Below are positions 1 through 18,180 of a stretch of DNA of 29,424 nucleotides, in pieces. Below the pieces are notes generated by a model. That model searched no databases. It had not been told where the DNA came from and saw only the letters and a program-made list of their open reading frames with translations. This stretch comes from a virus: IMG/VR virus record IMGVR_UViG_3300035698_023746, positions 1 to 29,424 of that record, one strand, 5' to 3'. The number at the start of each line of letters is the position of its first letter. Position 1 is the first letter of the stretch. The position numbers and the translations under genes were made by a program.

Positions 1-188
1 GTTTTACTCCCTGTATCCATTCCTGCAACTATTTCTTGTGTATTTTCCTCACAATCCCATAAAAGTTTGATTGTGAATGGTGTTCTTTTAATGCACTTTG
101 CTTTACCAGCTTCAAGCAGATGTTTAGTTTTTGCTGGCGAACACGGTATTAAGGGTTTCCCGTTTTTATTTATTACATACACATACAT
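1..188 (-). CDS. iscB: IscB/IsrB RNA-guided nuclease, N-terminal 62 aa (runs off the window edge; absent from ORF track)
   Basis: Manual translation from ATG at 188: MYVYVINKNGKPLIPCSPAKTKHLLEAGKAKCIKRTPFTIKLLWDCEENTQEIVAGMDTGSK. This is the PLMP domain (here PLIP, with PFTIKL) followed by the RuvC-I motif G-x-D-x-G-x-K. AGGAGG SD lies about 9 nt upstream. IscB versus IsrB cannot be resolved because the HNH region is outside the window. Confidence 0.9.
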   Translation of the reverse strand, partial: MYVYVINKNGKPLIPCSPAKTKHLLEAGKAKCIKRTPFTIKLLWDCEENTQEIVAGMDTGSK

Positions 189-468
189 GGCCTTAAGCCC
201 TCCTGTGTATTGGAGTTATGCGTATTATTGGTTTTGGAGTTACCAATAAATCCGACTTCCTCTCGCAGGGATATCACAGAGTTTAACGATATGAGCACTG
301 TCCTTACCACACGGGACTGTTTAACCCATATCCAAAGAGCTTGGAACTGAGGCGGTATCCCAAGGTTTCTAATTTTCTGTGTATCGTTTACAAACATTTT
401 TACTCCTGCCTGTCTGCTGGTAACCTTTGGCTTTTAAAAGCCATGGGGCTTGCCCCGTGGTAGGTTAC
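189..468 (-). ncRNA. omega-RNA (HEARO-like) scaffold of the IscB element
   Basis: Minus strand starts GTAACCTACC (cf. typical GTCAACTACC end). GTAACCT pairs with AGGTTAC around hairpins CCACGGGG-CAAG-CCCCATGG and GGCTTTT/AAAAGCC. Further on: GGGATACCGCCTCAGTTCCAAGCTCT, a GATATGGG/CTCATATC stem and a TATTGG/CCAATA stem. Lies directly 5' of iscB. Confidence 0.85.
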
Positions 469-1694
469 TCGTAATTTTTTATTGAGTGCTTAAGATACTC
501 CATGTAAAGAGAATCTGCACACTGATTTTTACCCTTGCTTTCAGAAATTTTAGCAACGGGTTGTCCGTGGCTTTTTGACATTTTCATGACAACTTGCGGC
601 GTTGGAACAATCGTGTCGTTCGTCAAATCTGTTCCTATGCCAAAAGAACATTGAATTTTCCTTCCAAAAATTTCATGAAGTTTAATTGCCTTCGGAATAT
701 CCAAGCCATCACTGAAAACAATGCATTTTTCCCGAGGGTCTATTCCATAACCTTCATACATGGCTATAATATCATTTGCAAATTTTACAGGATTCCCACT
801 ATCATGGCGCACTCCATCATACAATTTTGCCAACTCTAATGAAAAGTCTTTAAAAAACTTCTTATGACCCAACGTATCAGGAAGGCATATTCCCCAAAGC
901 CCCCTGTATTCACGAGACCATATTTTATATGCCTCTCTCGCGCTATGCTGGACAGGCACAAGTCCCTGCATGCCCATGGGTAAGACATGGCTGAAAGTTC
1001 CGATTGCTTTTAAATCAAACTGCATCGCAGAAAATACATTGCTTGTTCCGACTAGGTTTTCCCCAAGTTCTTCCTGTAAATATTTTATAACCTGGGTTTG
1101 CCAAGCTGAATGCAACCTGCGCCTTGTCCCGAATTCTATCAAACGAAATCCGAATTTACCACCTTCACAACTTCGAACATACGATTTCAGCACGTCAATT
1201 TTGTCCTGTAACCTTTCCCATGCAACCCTGTATACCTCTTCCGTGCTAACGCTGTTCGCTTCCATCCAGTTCTTAGCAAAAACTTGATTTACCGTTGACA
1301 AAACCATAGTTTCATAAGGAATAATCCTAGCCCACGGTCCTTTCGCGTTAATATCCCACCCCTCTCCATTTTTAGGGATTGTAAGGTCATTTTCTACATC
1401 AAACCGAAAATCTTTTAAATATCGCAAATAACTATTTTTAAAATAGCCAAGACGGGAAAGGTAATCTAATTCACGACGATCCAAAAGGAGGGGGTCCAAC
1501 TTGGAAAGGGCCTCCTTGATTTCGTCCCTCGAAACATATTTGAATAGATACCCTGACCCCTCGCCACCGCCTTTCACGTTTCGACAAACGAATTTATACT
1601 CACAGTCAACATTCGAGAAACGATGAAAGACTAATTGCTGCATCGTTAATTGATAAAGGTCAAGATCGAGAAGTGATTTCATAATATAGTTCAT
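465..1694 (-). CDS. pncB: Nicotinate phosphoribosyltransferase
   Basis: Motifs LLDLDLYQLTM, EFGTRRR, GTSNV, GTFSH (phospho-His position), PDT, RHDSG, FSDGLD, FGIGTDLTND, AKISE. GGAGG SD. Confidence 0.95.
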   Translation of the reverse strand: MNYIMKSLLDLDLYQLTMQQLVFHRFSNVDCEYKFVCRNVKGGGEGSGYLFKYVSRDEIKEALSKLDPLLLDRRELDYLSRLGYFKNSYLRYLKDFRFDVENDLTIPKNGEGWDINAKGPWARIIPYETMVLSTVNQVFAKNWMEANSVSTEEVYRVAWERLQDKIDVLKSYVRSCEGGKFGFRLIEFGTRRRLHSAWQTQVIKYLQEELGENLVGTSNVFSAMQFDLKAIGTFSHVLPMGMQGLVPVQHSAREAYKIWSREYRGLWGICLPDTLGHKKFFKDFSLELAKLYDGVRHDSGNPVKFANDIIAMYEGYGIDPREKCIVFSDGLDIPKAIKLHEIFGRKIQCSFGIGTDLTNDTIVPTPQVVMKMSKSHGQPVAKISESKGKNQCADSLYMEYLKHSIKNYE

Positions 1695-2714: not shown

Positions 2715-4190
2715 TTAATCCTCGAATTTGAAATAAGGACAAGCTTTCTTTTTCTGCGCCCATGCGAAGACCCAAAGGTAAGCAAGGAACTGACCGATGA
2801 ATTTCAGGATATTTATGAAACCCGCCCATCCAGACGTAAGCAACCTGCCAATTGGTCCGAGGACTCTTTCAATAATCGCAGCAAGCTTCGCACAGTGTTC
2901 ATCCAAACGCGCCATTTTTTCTTCCCAAGCTTTGATTCGTTCAAGAGATCCATCAACGTCAATGATTAGAGAATCGGACAGTCGGAGAAACCATTTGTCG
3001 AATTTTGAAAAGCATTTATTAGTATACATATAATCCGTGCGATAGGGACCAAAGACCAAATCTAGCTGTTGCAAGAAGTTGTAAACGTCTTTGGACAGCA
3101 CATCTTTTGGCACGAATTCATCGAAGTAACAATGCCAGCCGTAAACGCTTCCCCGATGCCTCTTTGGCGTATCGCCGAAATCCTCTGGTTTGTGCAACAT
3201 CAGCGGCCCAATAAGCGGCCTTATGGTTTCCTCGTAGAAATCTTCTACAAATTGTTTCTTGAAAGAATCGTAGAATTTTGAATAATGGTTGATTTCACCT
3301 ATTCGCCCATAAGACGAAATCGCTTTTTCTTGCAGATTCATAACGAAGTCACCATCTTCGAGCATTCTATCCACAAACATCTGCTTCCATTCTCTTTGGT
3401 AAGTCGAAGGCTTCTCTTCTGAATCGTCATCATCCTCAAGGAGGAAAAAGCGGACAAGGAAAGAAAGACCTCCCAATATCACAGCGACTACCAAGGCAGG
3501 AATTGCCATTAATTTTGCGGCAAATACCGTCCATACAAAAAGCTTTACGGCACACCACCAGATTCCCCAAACAACCACAGAGATCCCCCCTCCAATCACA
3601 ATAAAAATGTTGAGAAAAGAAGCTAAGTTAAAGACAAGTATACCCGTAAGCATTAAGACTCCCCACCCATACACAAAATACTTAGTGGAACAGTTACACA
3701 GTCCCTTTTCTTCAAAAATCGCAGAAGCTGCGGCGATTGCGAGACCGATAGGAATTCCCCACCAAAGCATGTAATATATAGGCAGATGACCATACGCTAC
3801 AAGACCGCCAAGAAACACTCCGACAATGAGGGATAACACGAACCCGACGATGGACACGGCAAAGCCCATCAGGATAAGAGAGGCAATTCCCGCTCCCGTC
3901 TCTTTAGTAATGGGAAATGGGCAATGATTCCGCCCAAAATCGTCGACCACTTTAAAAGGCTTGGCTACTGTGCTTCTTAGGATAGGCTGAAAGATGTAAT
4001 AGATCGGCCAGACAAAACAGAACCTGAATCCCGTCATACCGAACAAGCCGAACCAAAAGAACGGGCAGACAGAGAATCCCTCTGGGACATCTTTTTGCCA
4101 CAATTCATTTTTAAACAAGTATTTGAAGCCCTTGTAGATTGGATGGGTTTTCTTATACCACGCTTTTACCATTTTTTCTGGAACTAACAT
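2715..4190 (-). CDS. Multi-pass membrane protein, unknown function
   Basis: About 6-8 long hydrophobic segments in residues ~40-250, an acidic linker (EDDDDSEE), a soluble domain and a hydrophobic C-terminal segment. AAAGGA SD. Confidence 0.8.
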   Translation of the reverse strand: MLVPEKMVKAWYKKTHPIYKGFKYLFKNELWQKDVPEGFSVCPFFWFGLFGMTGFRFCFVWPIYYIFQPILRSTVAKPFKVVDDFGRNHCPFPITKETGAGIASLILMGFAVSIVGFVLSLIVGVFLGGLVAYGHLPIYYMLWWGIPIGLAIAAASAIFEEKGLCNCSTKYFVYGWGVLMLTGILVFNLASFLNIFIVIGGGISVVVWGIWWCAVKLFVWTVFAAKLMAIPALVVAVILGGLSFLVRFFLLEDDDDSEEKPSTYQREWKQMFVDRMLEDGDFVMNLQEKAISSYGRIGEINHYSKFYDSFKKQFVEDFYEETIRPLIGPLMLHKPEDFGDTPKRHRGSVYGWHCYFDEFVPKDVLSKDVYNFLQQLDLVFGPYRTDYMYTNKCFSKFDKWFLRLSDSLIIDVDGSLERIKAWEEKMARLDEHCAKLAAIIERVLGPIGRLLTSGWAGFINILKFIGQFLAYLWVFAWAQKKKACPYFKFED

Positions 4191-7564: not shown

Positions 7565-7594
7565 ATTATGCGTGCCCCCCTTGAAATTAGTCAA
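7565..7594 (-). promoter_or_regulatory. sigma70-like promoter
   Basis: TTGACT(7594-7589), 18 nt, CATAAT(7570-7565), immediately after a terminator. Confidence 0.65.
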
Positions 7595-12327: not shown

Positions 12328-12945
12328 TTATTTAAATAAAAATTGTTTCCACTCTTCTTTCATCTCACCATCCCTAACATGGAGGATTAAAGGCCATTTT
12401 TTGATCTTCTCCTCTAGTTTTACACCATCCGCATCAAAATAGGGGTGAATGTCTGCTTTTCTAGAGTTACATCTCTTGCAGGTTGGCAAGACATTGTATG
12501 ACTCCGCGGGCCCGCCCTTGCTTCGTGGGAAAACGTGCTCGATAGTCATATTTCTCAACTTTGTTTTCTCACCGCAGATCTGACACCTGTTGTTATAATA
12601 CGAGGAAAGCCTTGACAAGGGAATTTTTCCCGCTCTTGGTTTATAGAAAAAGGTGCTTGTCGTAACACCAACAAATGGAATTGGCCACTCTGTATGAGCA
12701 CTCTTTAAGCATGGCTGATGATCGGGGAAGATAGGTAAGTCCACCTCTTTGCTCTGCGGTAAAGATGGAAACCAACTATTTGCCGAACTCCAAGTCCCAA
12801 GGTGGGTATTTCCAAACTGGTCAAGGGCTTTCATTCTTCCACAAAGCATGTGACTCATCGCTACCCGTGCTGCGACAACCCTTAAAGGCATCCATCCCGT
12901 GTTGAGAATTAAAGTCGTTTTTTCTGTTGCTTTTACCTGAATCAT
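12328..12945 (-). CDS. HNH endonuclease (McrA/HNH_5-like)
   Basis: LILNTGWMPL N-terminus; CQICG...TIEHVFPRSKGG...NVLPTCKRCNSRK. Confidence 0.9.
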   Translation of the reverse strand: MIQVKATEKTTLILNTGWMPLRVVAARVAMSHMLCGRMKALDQFGNTHLGTWSSANSWFPSLPQSKEVDLPIFPDHQPCLKSAHTEWPIPFVGVTTSTFFYKPRAGKIPLSRLSSYYNNRCQICGEKTKLRNMTIEHVFPRSKGGPAESYNVLPTCKRCNSRKADIHPYFDADGVKLEEKIKKWPLILHVRDGEMKEEWKQFLFK

Positions 12946-14517: not shown

Positions 14518-14891
14518 TAATTATTTATCCCTCTCGATATTTCTTTCACGTCAATCTTTTTTGCACAAATTCGTTTCTGAATTGCTGACATAAACTTGCT
14601 GAAATCGTGAGGTCCGCAAACGTGATAGTCTATAAGTGCCTGCCCCAACTCTGGCCACGTATGTATAGAAGCGTGGGACTCTGCTAAGGACAACAAAACT
14701 GTCACACCCTGAGGTGAAAATGACCTTGCCATTCCTCCAAGACAAGTGCTTCCCGCCTCTTCCACTGCAATCAAGAGGGTAGAGTAAAGATCCTTCTCGC
14801 TATTTAATACGCTTTCATCACACCCAAAAACATCAACAAGATAATGCTTGGAAATCGGATTGTGTTTAGATGTTAATTTTTCATCACCCAT
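14517..14891 (-). CDS. speD: S-adenosylmethionine decarboxylase proenzyme (class 1b)
   Basis: KHYLVD, PQGVT, LAE|SHASIHTWPE self-cleavage (pyruvoyl) motif, CG. Adjacent to speE. Confidence 0.92.
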   Translation of the reverse strand: MGDEKLTSKHNPISKHYLVDVFGCDESVLNSEKDLYSTLLIAVEEAGSTCLGGMARSFSPQGVTVLLSLAESHASIHTWPELGQALIDYHVCGPHDFSKFMSAIQKRICAKKIDVKEISRGINN

Positions 14892-16144
14892 TATTTCAAA
14901 TCGCTGAGTTTTAGATAAGCCTTCCTGTCTAAGATAGACAAGTCGCTTAAGAAGATTATATCATTCGAACGAGATCCTTTTGCAATCACAATGTTTCCAT
15001 CCTCTGGCAACACAATCTTCCCATTGGTGGGAGTGTTCCTATCAATCCACTTGTTGAAAGACCAATCATAAAAGATACACTTTAAGCTTGCATCAGAGTC
15101 GTCAAGTGTAAGCTTTAACATATCAGCATTTTTCGCCTTGGACTTGGACCTCTTCACCTCAGATAAGCTTCCGCAGAAAATCCCACGCTCTCTATCCTCC
15201 ATTTTGTCGAACTCACTCAAAGGCTTCAACTCTCTTTGCTCTTCCTTGAGAATCTCAAATAATGAATCACTATAAGAAAAACCTAACAGTTCCTTTTCAA
15301 AGAACCAATTGGCAAGCCTGTTATGCTCCCTATTTCTTTTGTAAATCTCAAGGTATCGAACACTTTTCCGCTGGATGGTTCCCCCATCTTCCTCCATACT
15401 CTGACCCTCAGCTAGGATCTTCCATCTGGTGGGTTTGAAAATCAAAACCTTGCCGCCCTCATCCTTTCGATCCTCTTCTACACAGACTCTAATTAATTCG
15501 AACAGATTGTTGTCGAACTCTCCCGTGAATTGTAAGACGTAACGCTTCTCCCTTGGAGTTAATAGGTTAAAGACTTGCGCCTCCAACACCGCGTAACAGC
15601 GAGGCTTGTCTTGTAAGATGATGGAATTGATTGCTCCTGCTTGAATCAAAGCAGAAAGAGCACCAATAGATATGCCGACTTCTTTTGCAGCGAGAAAAAG
15701 CTCGAACTTGTTTGAGATGGTTTTCCCCTCAACAATATCTCTCAGCTTCTCTACAGTATCATATTTCTTATGACCTATTCCTTTCACTGCTGCCAATCCA
15801 AAACGAATATTCTTCCCCTCAATGGCAAATGCAATTTCACTCTTCAATAAATCAGGAGGTAGAAGCTGGGTTCCAAAATGACTAAGCTCTTTTGTGATCT
15901 TGGATATCTCCAAGTGAGGCTTTGGCTCTTTCAAACTCATGTTCAACAGCGCCAAGAAAAACTCTTTTGGGTAGTTCCACTTAAGGTAAAGCGTCCACGC
16001 GGAAAGGGTTGCGTAAGAAATACTGTGGCTATTGGAAGTTACTAATCCCTCGGCATAAAAATTGTGATTTGAATGTCCAACTTCTAAATCCAAGGTTTTC
16101 TTTTTTCCTATGTTTCTAATCTTTTTAATTTTTGTAGTTCGCAT
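14891..16144 (-). CDS. dnaE: DNA polymerase III alpha C-terminal part, preceded by split intein IntC
   Basis: After a 38-aa IntC: SHSISYATLS...YLK..YP.EF, LLPPDL..S, IRFGLAAVKGIG (HhH), EKELLG, C-terminal OB fold. Confidence 0.95.
   Translation of the reverse strand: MRTTKIKKIRNIGKKKTLDLEVGHSNHNFYAEGLVTSNSHSISYATLSAWTLYLKWNYPKEFFLALLNMSLKEPKPHLEISKITKELSHFGTQLLPPDLLKSEIAFAIEGKNIRFGLAAVKGIGHKKYDTVEKLRDIVEGKTISNKFELFLAAKEVGISIGALSALIQAGAINSIILQDKPRCYAVLEAQVFNLLTPREKRYVLQFTGEFDNNLFELIRVCVEEDRKDEGGKVLIFKPTRWKILAEGQSMEEDGGTIQRKSVRYLEIYKRNREHNRLANWFFEKELLGFSYSDSLFEILKEEQRELKPLSEFDKMEDRERGIFCGSLSEVKRSKSKAKNADMLKLTLDDSDASLKCIFYDWSFNKWIDRNTPTNGKIVLPEDGNIVIAKGSRSNDIIFLSDLSILDRKAYLKLSDLK
16031..16144 (-). 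other. Split intein C-half (IntC, 38 aa)
   Basis: MRTTKIKKIRNIGKKKTLDLEVGHSNHNFYAEGLVTSN|S. Block F (DLEV...NFY), terminal Asn, +1 Ser. Confidence 0.93.
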
Positions 16145-16344: not shown

Positions 16345-18180
16345 CTATTCTTTACATACGATTTCCCAATCTTCTTCTAATACCCTTTTCAAAGAACGCA
16401 TTTTTTTATCCGAGCATAAAAATTTATGATCTAAAGAACACTGTATTTTTCTTCCATCTTCAAACTCAACTTCTTGAAGCTCGGCTGAACTTTCATGTAT
16501 ATCAACAACTTCTACATAATGGTTTTTGTCTCTTTCTACATCGTAAGCCAAAACTTCATCCCCGCTCTTTATCTCAAACAAACATCTGTTCCCGCCTCTT
16601 GTTTCGACGATAGTATCTGGCATTAAACACTTATTAAACGAATAATACTTCGAATCATCGAGAATCTTCCAATAGACTCCAGCCAATTCTTCTGACAATC
16701 CTTTTTCTTTTGCGGCTGCGTAAACTTTCTCCCTCCATTCCGCCATCTCTTCGGTCTTTTTCTTTCCCACAACTCGACGCAACAACTCTGTTTCATCTAG
16801 TGATAAGCCAAAAACAAGATGCCCTATTTGCATCATTTGCTCTTGATAAAGAGGAACGTTCTGAGTGGAAGCTAAAATCCTATCTAGTTCAGGATGATTG
16901 GGTTTCACATACTTCGCGCCTGTTTTATAGTCTGCGTAATCTCCGATGTAAGCTAAAGCTCCTGGCCTTGCTAACGCCATCAAATCAGAAACTTCTGCCA
17001 AACAATTAGGCTTTACCTTTCTACATGCTTGGTATTGAGTCTCTGCTTCAATTTGAAAGATTCCATGCGGCGTTTTAAGCTCTTGTAGTGGTTCGTATAT
17101 CGCTGGATTGCTCAAGTCTACCTTCTCTATGTCAATTCCAACCTGCTTGCAAACATCACTGATCACAGAGATCGTCTTTAGCCCCAGCACATCAACCTTA
17201 ACGGTGAGTTCCTGCATGCTATACATGTCATAACCAGAGACCAACTCTGCTTCCTTCGTCTCTTTATTCTCGGTTATTTGGATCGGGCATATTTCGTCAA
17301 GGCTTCCATACGAGATAGCCATTGCAGAAGCGTGAACGCTGAAATTTCGTGGTAAGCCTTCCAACTTACAGGCAATATCAAAGAGGTCTTTGTTACTTGT
17401 CTTCCGACCTAGCCCACCTGTTGTTTTGTAAGGGTCTTCCGCCCACTTTCTCAATGATGGTGACTCTTCTATAGCATCCTTAAGCTTAGACAAAACACCA
17501 TGATGCTTTAAGATTAAATCTGCAAGCTCCCTTGCTGCCTCTTCATCATACTCTCCTGCAACCTTGACAACATCCTTCATCACAAGCTTTCCGCTCATGG
17601 TATTGACAGTTAAGATTTTTGCCGTCCTACCTGCGAACTTCTTGCTTATATAGTCGAGCACTTCGCGGCGACGATAATAACAAATATCAGAATCAACGTC
17701 TGGCAACAAGCCTCCATCAAAATAGGTTATGCCGTCTACGATTGTAGACTTGGCTCTAGGCTTACTAACAAACCTCTCAAAGAAAAGATTGTTCTCAATA
17801 GGGTCTATATTCGTAACCCCGATAAGATATAGAACTAAGGAGCCCGCAGCAGATCCACGTCCTGGACCTACTGGTATCTTACCTTCATGACAAAAGTTAA
17901 TGATGTCCCAAATCAGAAGAAGGTAATCAACAAACCCAAGCTCTTCAAGAATCTGTAGTTCGAACTTTCCACGCTCCACATACTCTTTGTTGTTCTTCAC
18001 ATCAAGCAGCTTGCGAGTCGCCATTCCTTTGAAACATAGCTCTTTTAAAAACTGTGGATTGCTAATATCGCTGCTTACGCCTAGCCTGTCATAGTATTTC
18101 TTCTCTATTTCAAACGCGGGTAAGCGGACGCCATGCATTCCCATGTCATCGTAGGGCTCGAACTGTTCTACAAACTTCAT
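16345..18180 (-). CDS. dnaE: DNA polymerase III alpha catalytic part (no PHP domain), followed by split intein IntN
   Basis: GRGSAAGSLV, LFFERF, PDVDSD and KVDVLGL catalytic Asps, GIFQIE, LARPG, YQEQMM. Extein ends YYSFNK. Confidence 0.96.
   Translation of the reverse strand: MKFVEQFEPYDDMGMHGVRLPAFEIEKKYYDRLGVSSDISNPQFLKELCFKGMATRKLLDVKNNKEYVERGKFELQILEELGFVDYLLLIWDIINFCHEGKIPVGPGRGSAAGSLVLYLIGVTNIDPIENNLFFERFVSKPRAKSTIVDGITYFDGGLLPDVDSDICYYRRREVLDYISKKFAGRTAKILTVNTMSGKLVMKDVVKVAGEYDEEAARELADLILKHHGVLSKLKDAIEESPSLRKWAEDPYKTTGGLGRKTSNKDLFDIACKLEGLPRNFSVHASAMAISYGSLDEICPIQITENKETKEAELVSGYDMYSMQELTVKVDVLGLKTISVISDVCKQVGIDIEKVDLSNPAIYEPLQELKTPHGIFQIEAETQYQACRKVKPNCLAEVSDLMALARPGALAYIGDYADYKTGAKYVKPNHPELDRILASTQNVPLYQEQMMQIGHLVFGLSLDETELLRRVVGKKKTEEMAEWREKVYAAAKEKGLSEELAGVYWKILDDSKYYSFNKCLMPDTIVETRGGNRCLFEIKSGDEVLAYDVERDKNHYVEVVDIHESSAELQEVEFEDGRKIQCSLDHKFLCSDKKMRSLKRVLEEDWEIVCKE
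16348..16629 (-). other. Split intein N-half (IntN, 94 aa)
   Basis: CLMPDTIVET (block A, Cys1)...EDGRKIQCSLDHKF (block B His)...VCKE*. Confidence 0.93.

Follow-up and report, generated by a model that had tools for sequence, protein, structure and literature searches.

Among the closest described relatives of the element considered here are the ISC transposons, which have 5'-GT(CA) termini and insert at N/ATGA, the slash marking the point of insertion (Kapitonov, Makarova, Koonin 2016, PMC4810608). The IscB-only elements ISC2 and ISC1 are 1.3-1.7 kb long and have a 5'-GT terminus, subterminal hairpins and no target duplication (PMC4810608), as does the element described below. Their termini read 5'-GTCA, whereas those of the present clade read 5'-GTAA and carry a compensating change in the first stem, the result being a TAA stop codon for upstream genes.

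ISGst5 of Geobacillus stearothermophilus, the element that encodes GstIscB, is likewise a non-autonomous IS605-type element made up of an omega RNA and iscB only, with a scaffold derived from the transposon end and an external guide, and cut-and-copy maintenance was proposed there. The guide is the flank lying 5' of the RE-derived scaffold and needs transcription from outside, IscB elements are biased to follow co-oriented genes, the TAM of GstIscB is TTCAT (ATGAA on the iscB strand), and cleavage by this enzyme is reported to respond strongly when the TAM is altered (Meers et al. 2023, bioRxiv 10.1101/2023.03.14.532601). The element at pncB differs from ISGst5 in its phage location, its clade's mostly ATGAC TAM, its GTAA terminus and its lack of a known transposase partner. 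The nearest cellular relatives, in a close-relative scan of species-representative genomes, are multicopy IscB elements of Methanosarcina (L056-L069, L072 and L076), which share 62-66% protein identity and the same architecture and are followed by ATGAA; they differ in having GTCA termini, other hairpin sequences and a location on archaeal chromosomes.

Within phages, comparison may be made with the free-standing Seg and Mob homing endonucleases of the T-even group, with which the present system shares a nuclease gene flanked by conserved genes of the phage; in a mixed infection, the nuclease would cleave whichever allele lacks it. Here, however, the target would be read by a guide RNA copied from the flank rather than by protein, and self would be told from non-self by the presence of the insert. 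Phage homing by OMEGA nucleases is treated in a 2026 review as a theoretical possibility, with direct evidence cited only for plasmids. Distant IscB homologues (below 41% identity) occur in about 41 GenBank phage records, where the annotated ones are labelled HNH endonuclease or hypothetical protein. Judged by its sequence, the element is at once an IscB locus, a HEARO RNA locus and an ISC-type transposon, and the kind of system is already known. What the locus provides is a natural IscB example in a lytic phage that is exact to the base, and for which the guide, the TAM and the ancestral target can all be reconstructed.

The phage and its pncB gene

The window (the whole 29,424-nt stretch analysed, IMG/VR record IMGVR_UViG_3300035698_023746) derives from a large lytic phage that encodes a two-ORF DNA polymerase, a DnaB-like helicase, a primase, an exonuclease, a Clp-type ATPase and a UvsX-like recombinase. 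No DNA-level match to it was found among GenBank phage records. The DNA polymerase (phrog_405) occupies consecutive minus-strand ORFs at 14891-16144 and 16345-18180, separated by a gap of 200 bp.

The minus-strand ORF running from 1694 to 465 is a complete pncB (nicotinate phosphoribosyltransferase) of 409 aa from its first ATG, called as 405 aa in the public protein collection. It matches Pfam NAPRTase_N (E 8e-26) and NAPRTase (E 2e-56), and the catalytic domain extends to the very end of the protein, residue 407 of 409 reaching profile position 237 of 239. The gene closes with ...AAT TAC GAG TAA. A preliminary description of this DNA had placed the end of an IscB element at about 468, such that the TAA within it serves as the pncB stop, and this is exact: position 1 of the HEARO model falls on G468, so that the scaffold opens with four bases that double as the final base of the Glu codon and the TAA stop (467-465), and homology to a further copy of the element in unrelated surroundings (see below) begins at 468/469. 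The 21-mer that it quoted from the end of pncB (489-469) had also been read correctly, and the coordinates and reading frame that it gave are exact. The features are collected in Table 1.

Table 1. Features of the IscB element and its surroundings, in window coordinates
Feature	Position	Strand	Basis and remarks
Part of element lying in the window	1..468	-	Whole element = L003 6428-7959; TAM ATGAC at L003 7960-7964
iscB codons 1-62 (PLMP-type N-terminus, RuvC-I motif GMDTGSK)	3..188	-	Pfam RRXRR; cut by window edge
Omega RNA scaffold	251..468	-	HEARO RF02033, full model; conserved structure extends to about 200
Subterminal hairpin CCACGGGGCAAGCCCCATGG	441..460	-	Repeated near the other end, inside the last iscB codons; paired IS200/IS605-type end hairpins
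pncB stop TAA	465..467	-	Bases 2-4 of element terminus GTAA
pncB	465..1694	-	ORF and Pfam; last base of Glu409 codon and stop lie inside the element
Predicted guide of about 16 nt, CAATAAAAAATTACGA	469..484	-	Position rule of Meers et al. and element boundary; length inferred

The whole element and its ends

The remainder of the element was recovered from eight metagenome contigs of the same phage by exact look-up of the pncB product. These are 99.3-100% identical to the window and show the same arrangement in all eight cases. L002-L006 span the whole element, L007 and L008 contain only its first part, and L009 stops at the element-type TAA; the first 468 bases of the window are identical to L003 and L002. 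The element measures 1,532 bp and contains an omega RNA and iscB only, with no transposase. The far end and the TAM, which the preliminary description had left to be sought beyond the window, are both present in L003, where the element ends and ATGAC follows directly. A 196-aa ORF just downstream of the element has no PHROGs or Pfam match.

A second copy, 94% identical, is found in the IMG/VR contig L001, downstream of a T4-like capsid gene. Homology between the two copies starts with (A)GTAACC at window position 468/469 and ends shortly after the iscB stop. Their left flanks also share an 8-nt identity, TAAGCACT; it lies at an unequal distance from the boundary in the two and was treated as chance. 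Each end of the element has a 20-nt CCACGGGGCAAGCCCCGTGG-type hairpin, 8 nt from the omega RNA end and about 20 nt from the other, and terminal inverted repeats are absent; on sequence grounds these paired subterminal hairpins match the IS200/IS605 design.

Two further observations concern these contigs. Directly after the TAM in L001 lies a 65-aa minus-strand ORF (2686-2883) with a Cas12f1-like TNB domain (PF07282, 32.8 bits), corresponding to the C-terminal end of TnpB; since no N-terminal part is present across the element, the IscB element there abuts a TnpB remnant. In L002, a 42-bp stretch (12544-12585, element positions 1331-1372) has six differences from L003, all as in the L001/L010 copy, while its surroundings, 3 kb on the upstream side and 1.5 kb on the downstream side, match L003 at 100%. 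This patch would be accounted for by gene conversion from one copy of the element to another, or else by a repeat having been assembled as a chimera.

Joining the flanks without the element gives ...AAT TAC GA/A TGA CAG CG..., from which the uninterrupted pncB probably ended GAA-TGA where the occupied gene ends GAG-TAA. Both read Glu-stop, so the insertion would have been silent at the protein level, and the former stop codon would now lie 1.5 kb away, within the TAM. None of the eight contigs offers an element-free allele: all are occupied. In the protein collection, identity drops from 100% straight to the 51% of the next pncB, with no relative in between; no close pncB relatives were found in viral contigs, and the reconstructed empty junction (24 nt) was absent from the metagenome collection. 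Since these searches turned up no pncB allele free of the element, homing at this locus and the GAA-TGA end of the ancestor are reconstructions.

The omega RNA and its predicted guide

The only Rfam match within the 29-kb window is HEARO (RF02033), which covers the full model (positions 1-211) from 468 to 251 on the minus strand with 92.6 bits (E 1.6e-19), above the curated gathering score of 83 bits. The structured omega RNA proposed in the preliminary description, for which a HEARO model search had been called for, is therefore borne out. In an alignment of 16 copies, 42 of the 79 predicted base pairs are maintained through two-sided compensatory changes.

By the published position rule, the guide is predicted to consist of the last coding bases of pncB, which adjoin the scaffold on its 5' side and do not belong to the element. 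The earlier suggestion of a guide of about 21 nt (489-469) therefore stands as to position, though a length of some 16 nt (484-469) is more likely. This sequence is very A/T-rich (12 of 16 bases). The scaffold follows pncB with no intervening spacer. A simple scan predicted no minus-strand promoter closer than 845-816, which leaves the final ~370 nt of pncB without one, and no terminator on the strand shared by pncB and the scaffold. Taken together, these features make read-through from pncB into the scaffold the obvious source of the omega RNA, and we infer from the sequence that it is transcribed in this way.

The IscB protein

Translation of iscB would start at 188, 62 nt beyond the end of the HEARO match and behind an AGGAGG ribosome-binding site. 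The 62 residues encoded within the window align to the Pfam profile RRXRR from its first position onward (E 5e-17), which identifies as IscB the ORF with PLIP and RuvC-I motifs that had been noticed downstream of the omega RNA. The same-phage contigs supply the rest of the gene and with it the answer to the question of whether an HNH domain is present. The full gene (L003 6708-7955) is intact and encodes 415 aa, with RRXRR, the profile for the PLMP region, RuvC-I and the arginine-rich helix, at E 8e-59 over profile positions 1-169 of 174, and with HNH (PF01844) set into the RuvC fold at residues 194-235 (E 1e-11). The RuvC motifs I, II and III (GMDTGSK, VE.ASFD and H..DA), aligned with HfmIscB by sequence only, are kept here and invariant in 15 copies, as is the HNH pattern HH...N...H.

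Of the solved structures, HfmIscB (9k2z) and OgeuIscB (7xht/7utn) share with this protein the core of PLMP, RuvC, bridge helix and HNH (E 8e-38 and 3e-32, respectively). The phage protein is shorter, at 415 aa compared with 495-540 aa, and the alignment with HfmIscB stops short of its C-terminal part.

When iscB at the pncB locus was compared with 14 other copies, 6 comparisons were saturated and the 8 with unsaturated dS gave dN/dS values of 0.05-0.15. Low dN/dS, invariant motifs and RNA covariation together indicate that both IscB and the omega RNA are under selection for function.

Insertion sites of the clade

Searches with the IscB protein and the conserved terminus placed members of this clade at 20 distinct sites, located in viral contigs and a single MAG contig, all of which start GTAAC(C/T)TACC. 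Among the 18 elements that are complete, the sequence that comes next is ATGAC in 12 cases, ATGAA in 3, ATGGC in 2 and ATGAG in 1, so that ATGA comes after 16 of the 18. One locus is represented in both states. Empty alleles (L034 and L035) read ...TTATTTGA directly joined to ATGACATTT..., and occupied ones (L018, L031, L032, L033 and L038) read ...TTATTTGA followed by GTAACC...CTAATTTTT and then ATGACATTT.... It follows that the element runs from GTAA to the base preceding ATGA and that its insertion leaves the target unduplicated. At pncB itself, the flanks point to insertion at N/ATGAC. An alternative right boundary, after TTTTATGAC, by which pncB would end ...YEA-stop, is ruled out by the empty-site alleles together with the published N/ATGA target; the element ends before ATGA.

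The occupied and empty alleles at the L018 locus differ at position -10 of the guide flank, which is G in all five occupied contigs and A in both empty ones. The A mismatches the guide and also completes a GGAG ribosome-binding site of the downstream gene; it could mark a cleavage-resistant empty allele or reflect plain linkage.

Donation of a stop codon is seen at two further sites, L015 and L016, where the TAA of the element closes long upstream ORFs (245 and 768 codons). In nine cases out of 18, a downstream ORF, 133-390 codons in length, takes its start codon from the ATG of the TAM. Within the window, ATGA occurs about once per 100 bp, both strands counted, and a clustering of insertions at gene junctions is the outcome to be expected if purifying selection acts on a densely packed phage genome. 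Because ATGA holds both a start and a stop codon, the motif would steer elements to gene junctions with no harm done.

The GTAA terminus has no counterpart in Kapitonov et al. 2016 or Meers et al. 2023 and is one base away from GTCA, as comparison of the sequences indicates. A change from GTCA to GTAA, with compensation in the first stem, creates a TAA codon, which would allow the element to land on ATGA overlaps of closely packed phage genes and leave the end of the upstream gene identical. Downstream genes are affected in another manner. At nine sites (L011, L012, L015, L018, L020, L039, L047, L051 and L053), the downstream gene still has its ATG, which the TAM provides, while its own ribosome-binding site has been moved 1.5 kb away, and the iscB stop lies 5-6 nt before this ATG in eight of the nine, overlapping it in L039. 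Given an adjacent iscB stop and a displaced ribosome-binding site, downstream translation may depend on coupling to iscB. One might speculate that GTAA is an adaptation that permits harmless landing on ATGA stop/start overlaps and then renders the downstream gene dependent on iscB, so that loss is costly. We hold this idea tentatively, with the odds somewhat against it; if true, the element would be harmless to gain and costly to lose.

Several sites show small departures from this pattern. In L047 and L051, ATGGC takes the place of ATGA and the ATG begins a real-looking gene (an SSB-like ORF of 133 aa and an ORF of 351 aa, respectively), which suggests some slack at TAM position 4. In L039 (9143-9150), the iscB stop codon TGA shares its final base with the TAM ATGAC, and in the Methanosarcina elements L057, L058 and L062, the iscB stop is itself the TGA of the target ATGA, such that the target site supplies the stop codon of the nuclease. 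The ORF that begins at the TAM ATG of L041 (reverse complement) resembles the N terminus of GyrB/topoisomerase II (..VRPGMYIGS..) and stops after 35 codons; this GyrB-like gene may be interrupted further on.

Proposed mechanism and alternatives

The reading that we favor, with a probability of roughly 0.8, is that of a non-autonomous ISC2-type (IS200/IS605) transposon that was inserted in trans at the pncB stop codon and is re-copied by IscB into element-free sites. In essence, a Y1 transposase supplied in trans would insert the element just 5' of an ATGA(C) whose TGA is the pncB stop, and the first bases of the element, GTAA, would replace ATGA with the pncB protein kept. Transcripts leaving pncB would enter the scaffold and give rise to an omega RNA with the last ~16 bases of pncB at its 5' end. 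IscB loaded with this RNA would cut DNA in which CAATAAAAAATTACGA is followed by ATGAC, that is, the element-free site, whether this arises by excision or is brought in by a co-infecting relative, and the recombination system of the phage would then copy the element back into the cut site. The occupied site would be spared because the 16-mer there precedes GTAAC, which is not the TAM. Homing into element-free alleles of co-infecting phages would fit both the mechanism of the family and the UvsX recombinase of this phage.

The many different sites show that transposition has occurred, and a Y1 transposase (PF01797) is absent from five phage records that carry members of the clade, one of them a complete genome of 96.9 kb. 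The enzyme must therefore come from elsewhere, a host-borne source being possible. The same absence could be taken to mean that the element no longer transposes in this phage lineage and is purely an RNA-guided homing element, persisting and spreading only through the cutting of element-free pncB in mixed infections and recombinational copying. Its fixation at one site in all eight contigs, from several samples, and the possession of a UvsX recombinase by the phage would agree with this, and 'non-restorative homing' into co-infecting phages has been raised as a possibility in the 2026 review. However, both subterminal hairpins are intact, the presence of the clade at 20 different ATGA-adjacent sites is explained only by transposition, and no empty pncB allele was found to serve as a target, so that we regard homing without transposition as improbable, if deserving of consideration.

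We give little credence to the notion that the element landed harmlessly and is now merely carried, its IscB and guide idle. It would account for the failure to find an empty site or a transposase, and decay does occur within the clade, as seen in an in-frame TGA in L011, a truncated copy in L040 and a mini-element in L048. The pncB copy, however, is full length with all catalytic motifs, is identical across samples and has retained the low dN/dS (0.05-0.15 against the 14 other copies) and compensated omega RNA pairing described above. It is equally doubtful that the nuclease serves chiefly as a weapon that destroys competing relatives with an uninterrupted pncB end, copying being a by-product. 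The 2026 review cites a report of the same logic for an intron endonuclease when phages co-infect, and the targeted gene is one that relatives would have in common, but no target-bearing relatives were found and the sequence data do not separate a weapon from homing. Trans-insertion followed by IscB-directed re-copying therefore remains our preferred reading, and a clade with 20 sites and one locus known in both empty and occupied form offers usable material with which to test RNA-guided homing between co-infecting phages.

Reduced and interrupted copies

Three members of the clade depart from the complete form. In L048 (minus strand; reverse complement, from locus position 7582), the end hairpin recurs about 150 nt beyond the GTAACC terminus and the first omega RNA stems, and there is no iscB; this is a probable protein-less mini-element (PATE-like). 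L040 has the whole omega RNA and an iscB that is cut after about 20 codons. In L011, a phage contig of 70.9 kb, iscB has a TGA (3127-3129) at the conserved Trp43 codon, and a second, N-terminal-only iscB fragment of the same contig (record G002, 46297-46467) also has one in-frame TGA. With ORF lengths under the two genetic codes favoring neither reading, the TGA codon in L011 may be a nonsense mutation that has been copied along, or it may be read as Trp.
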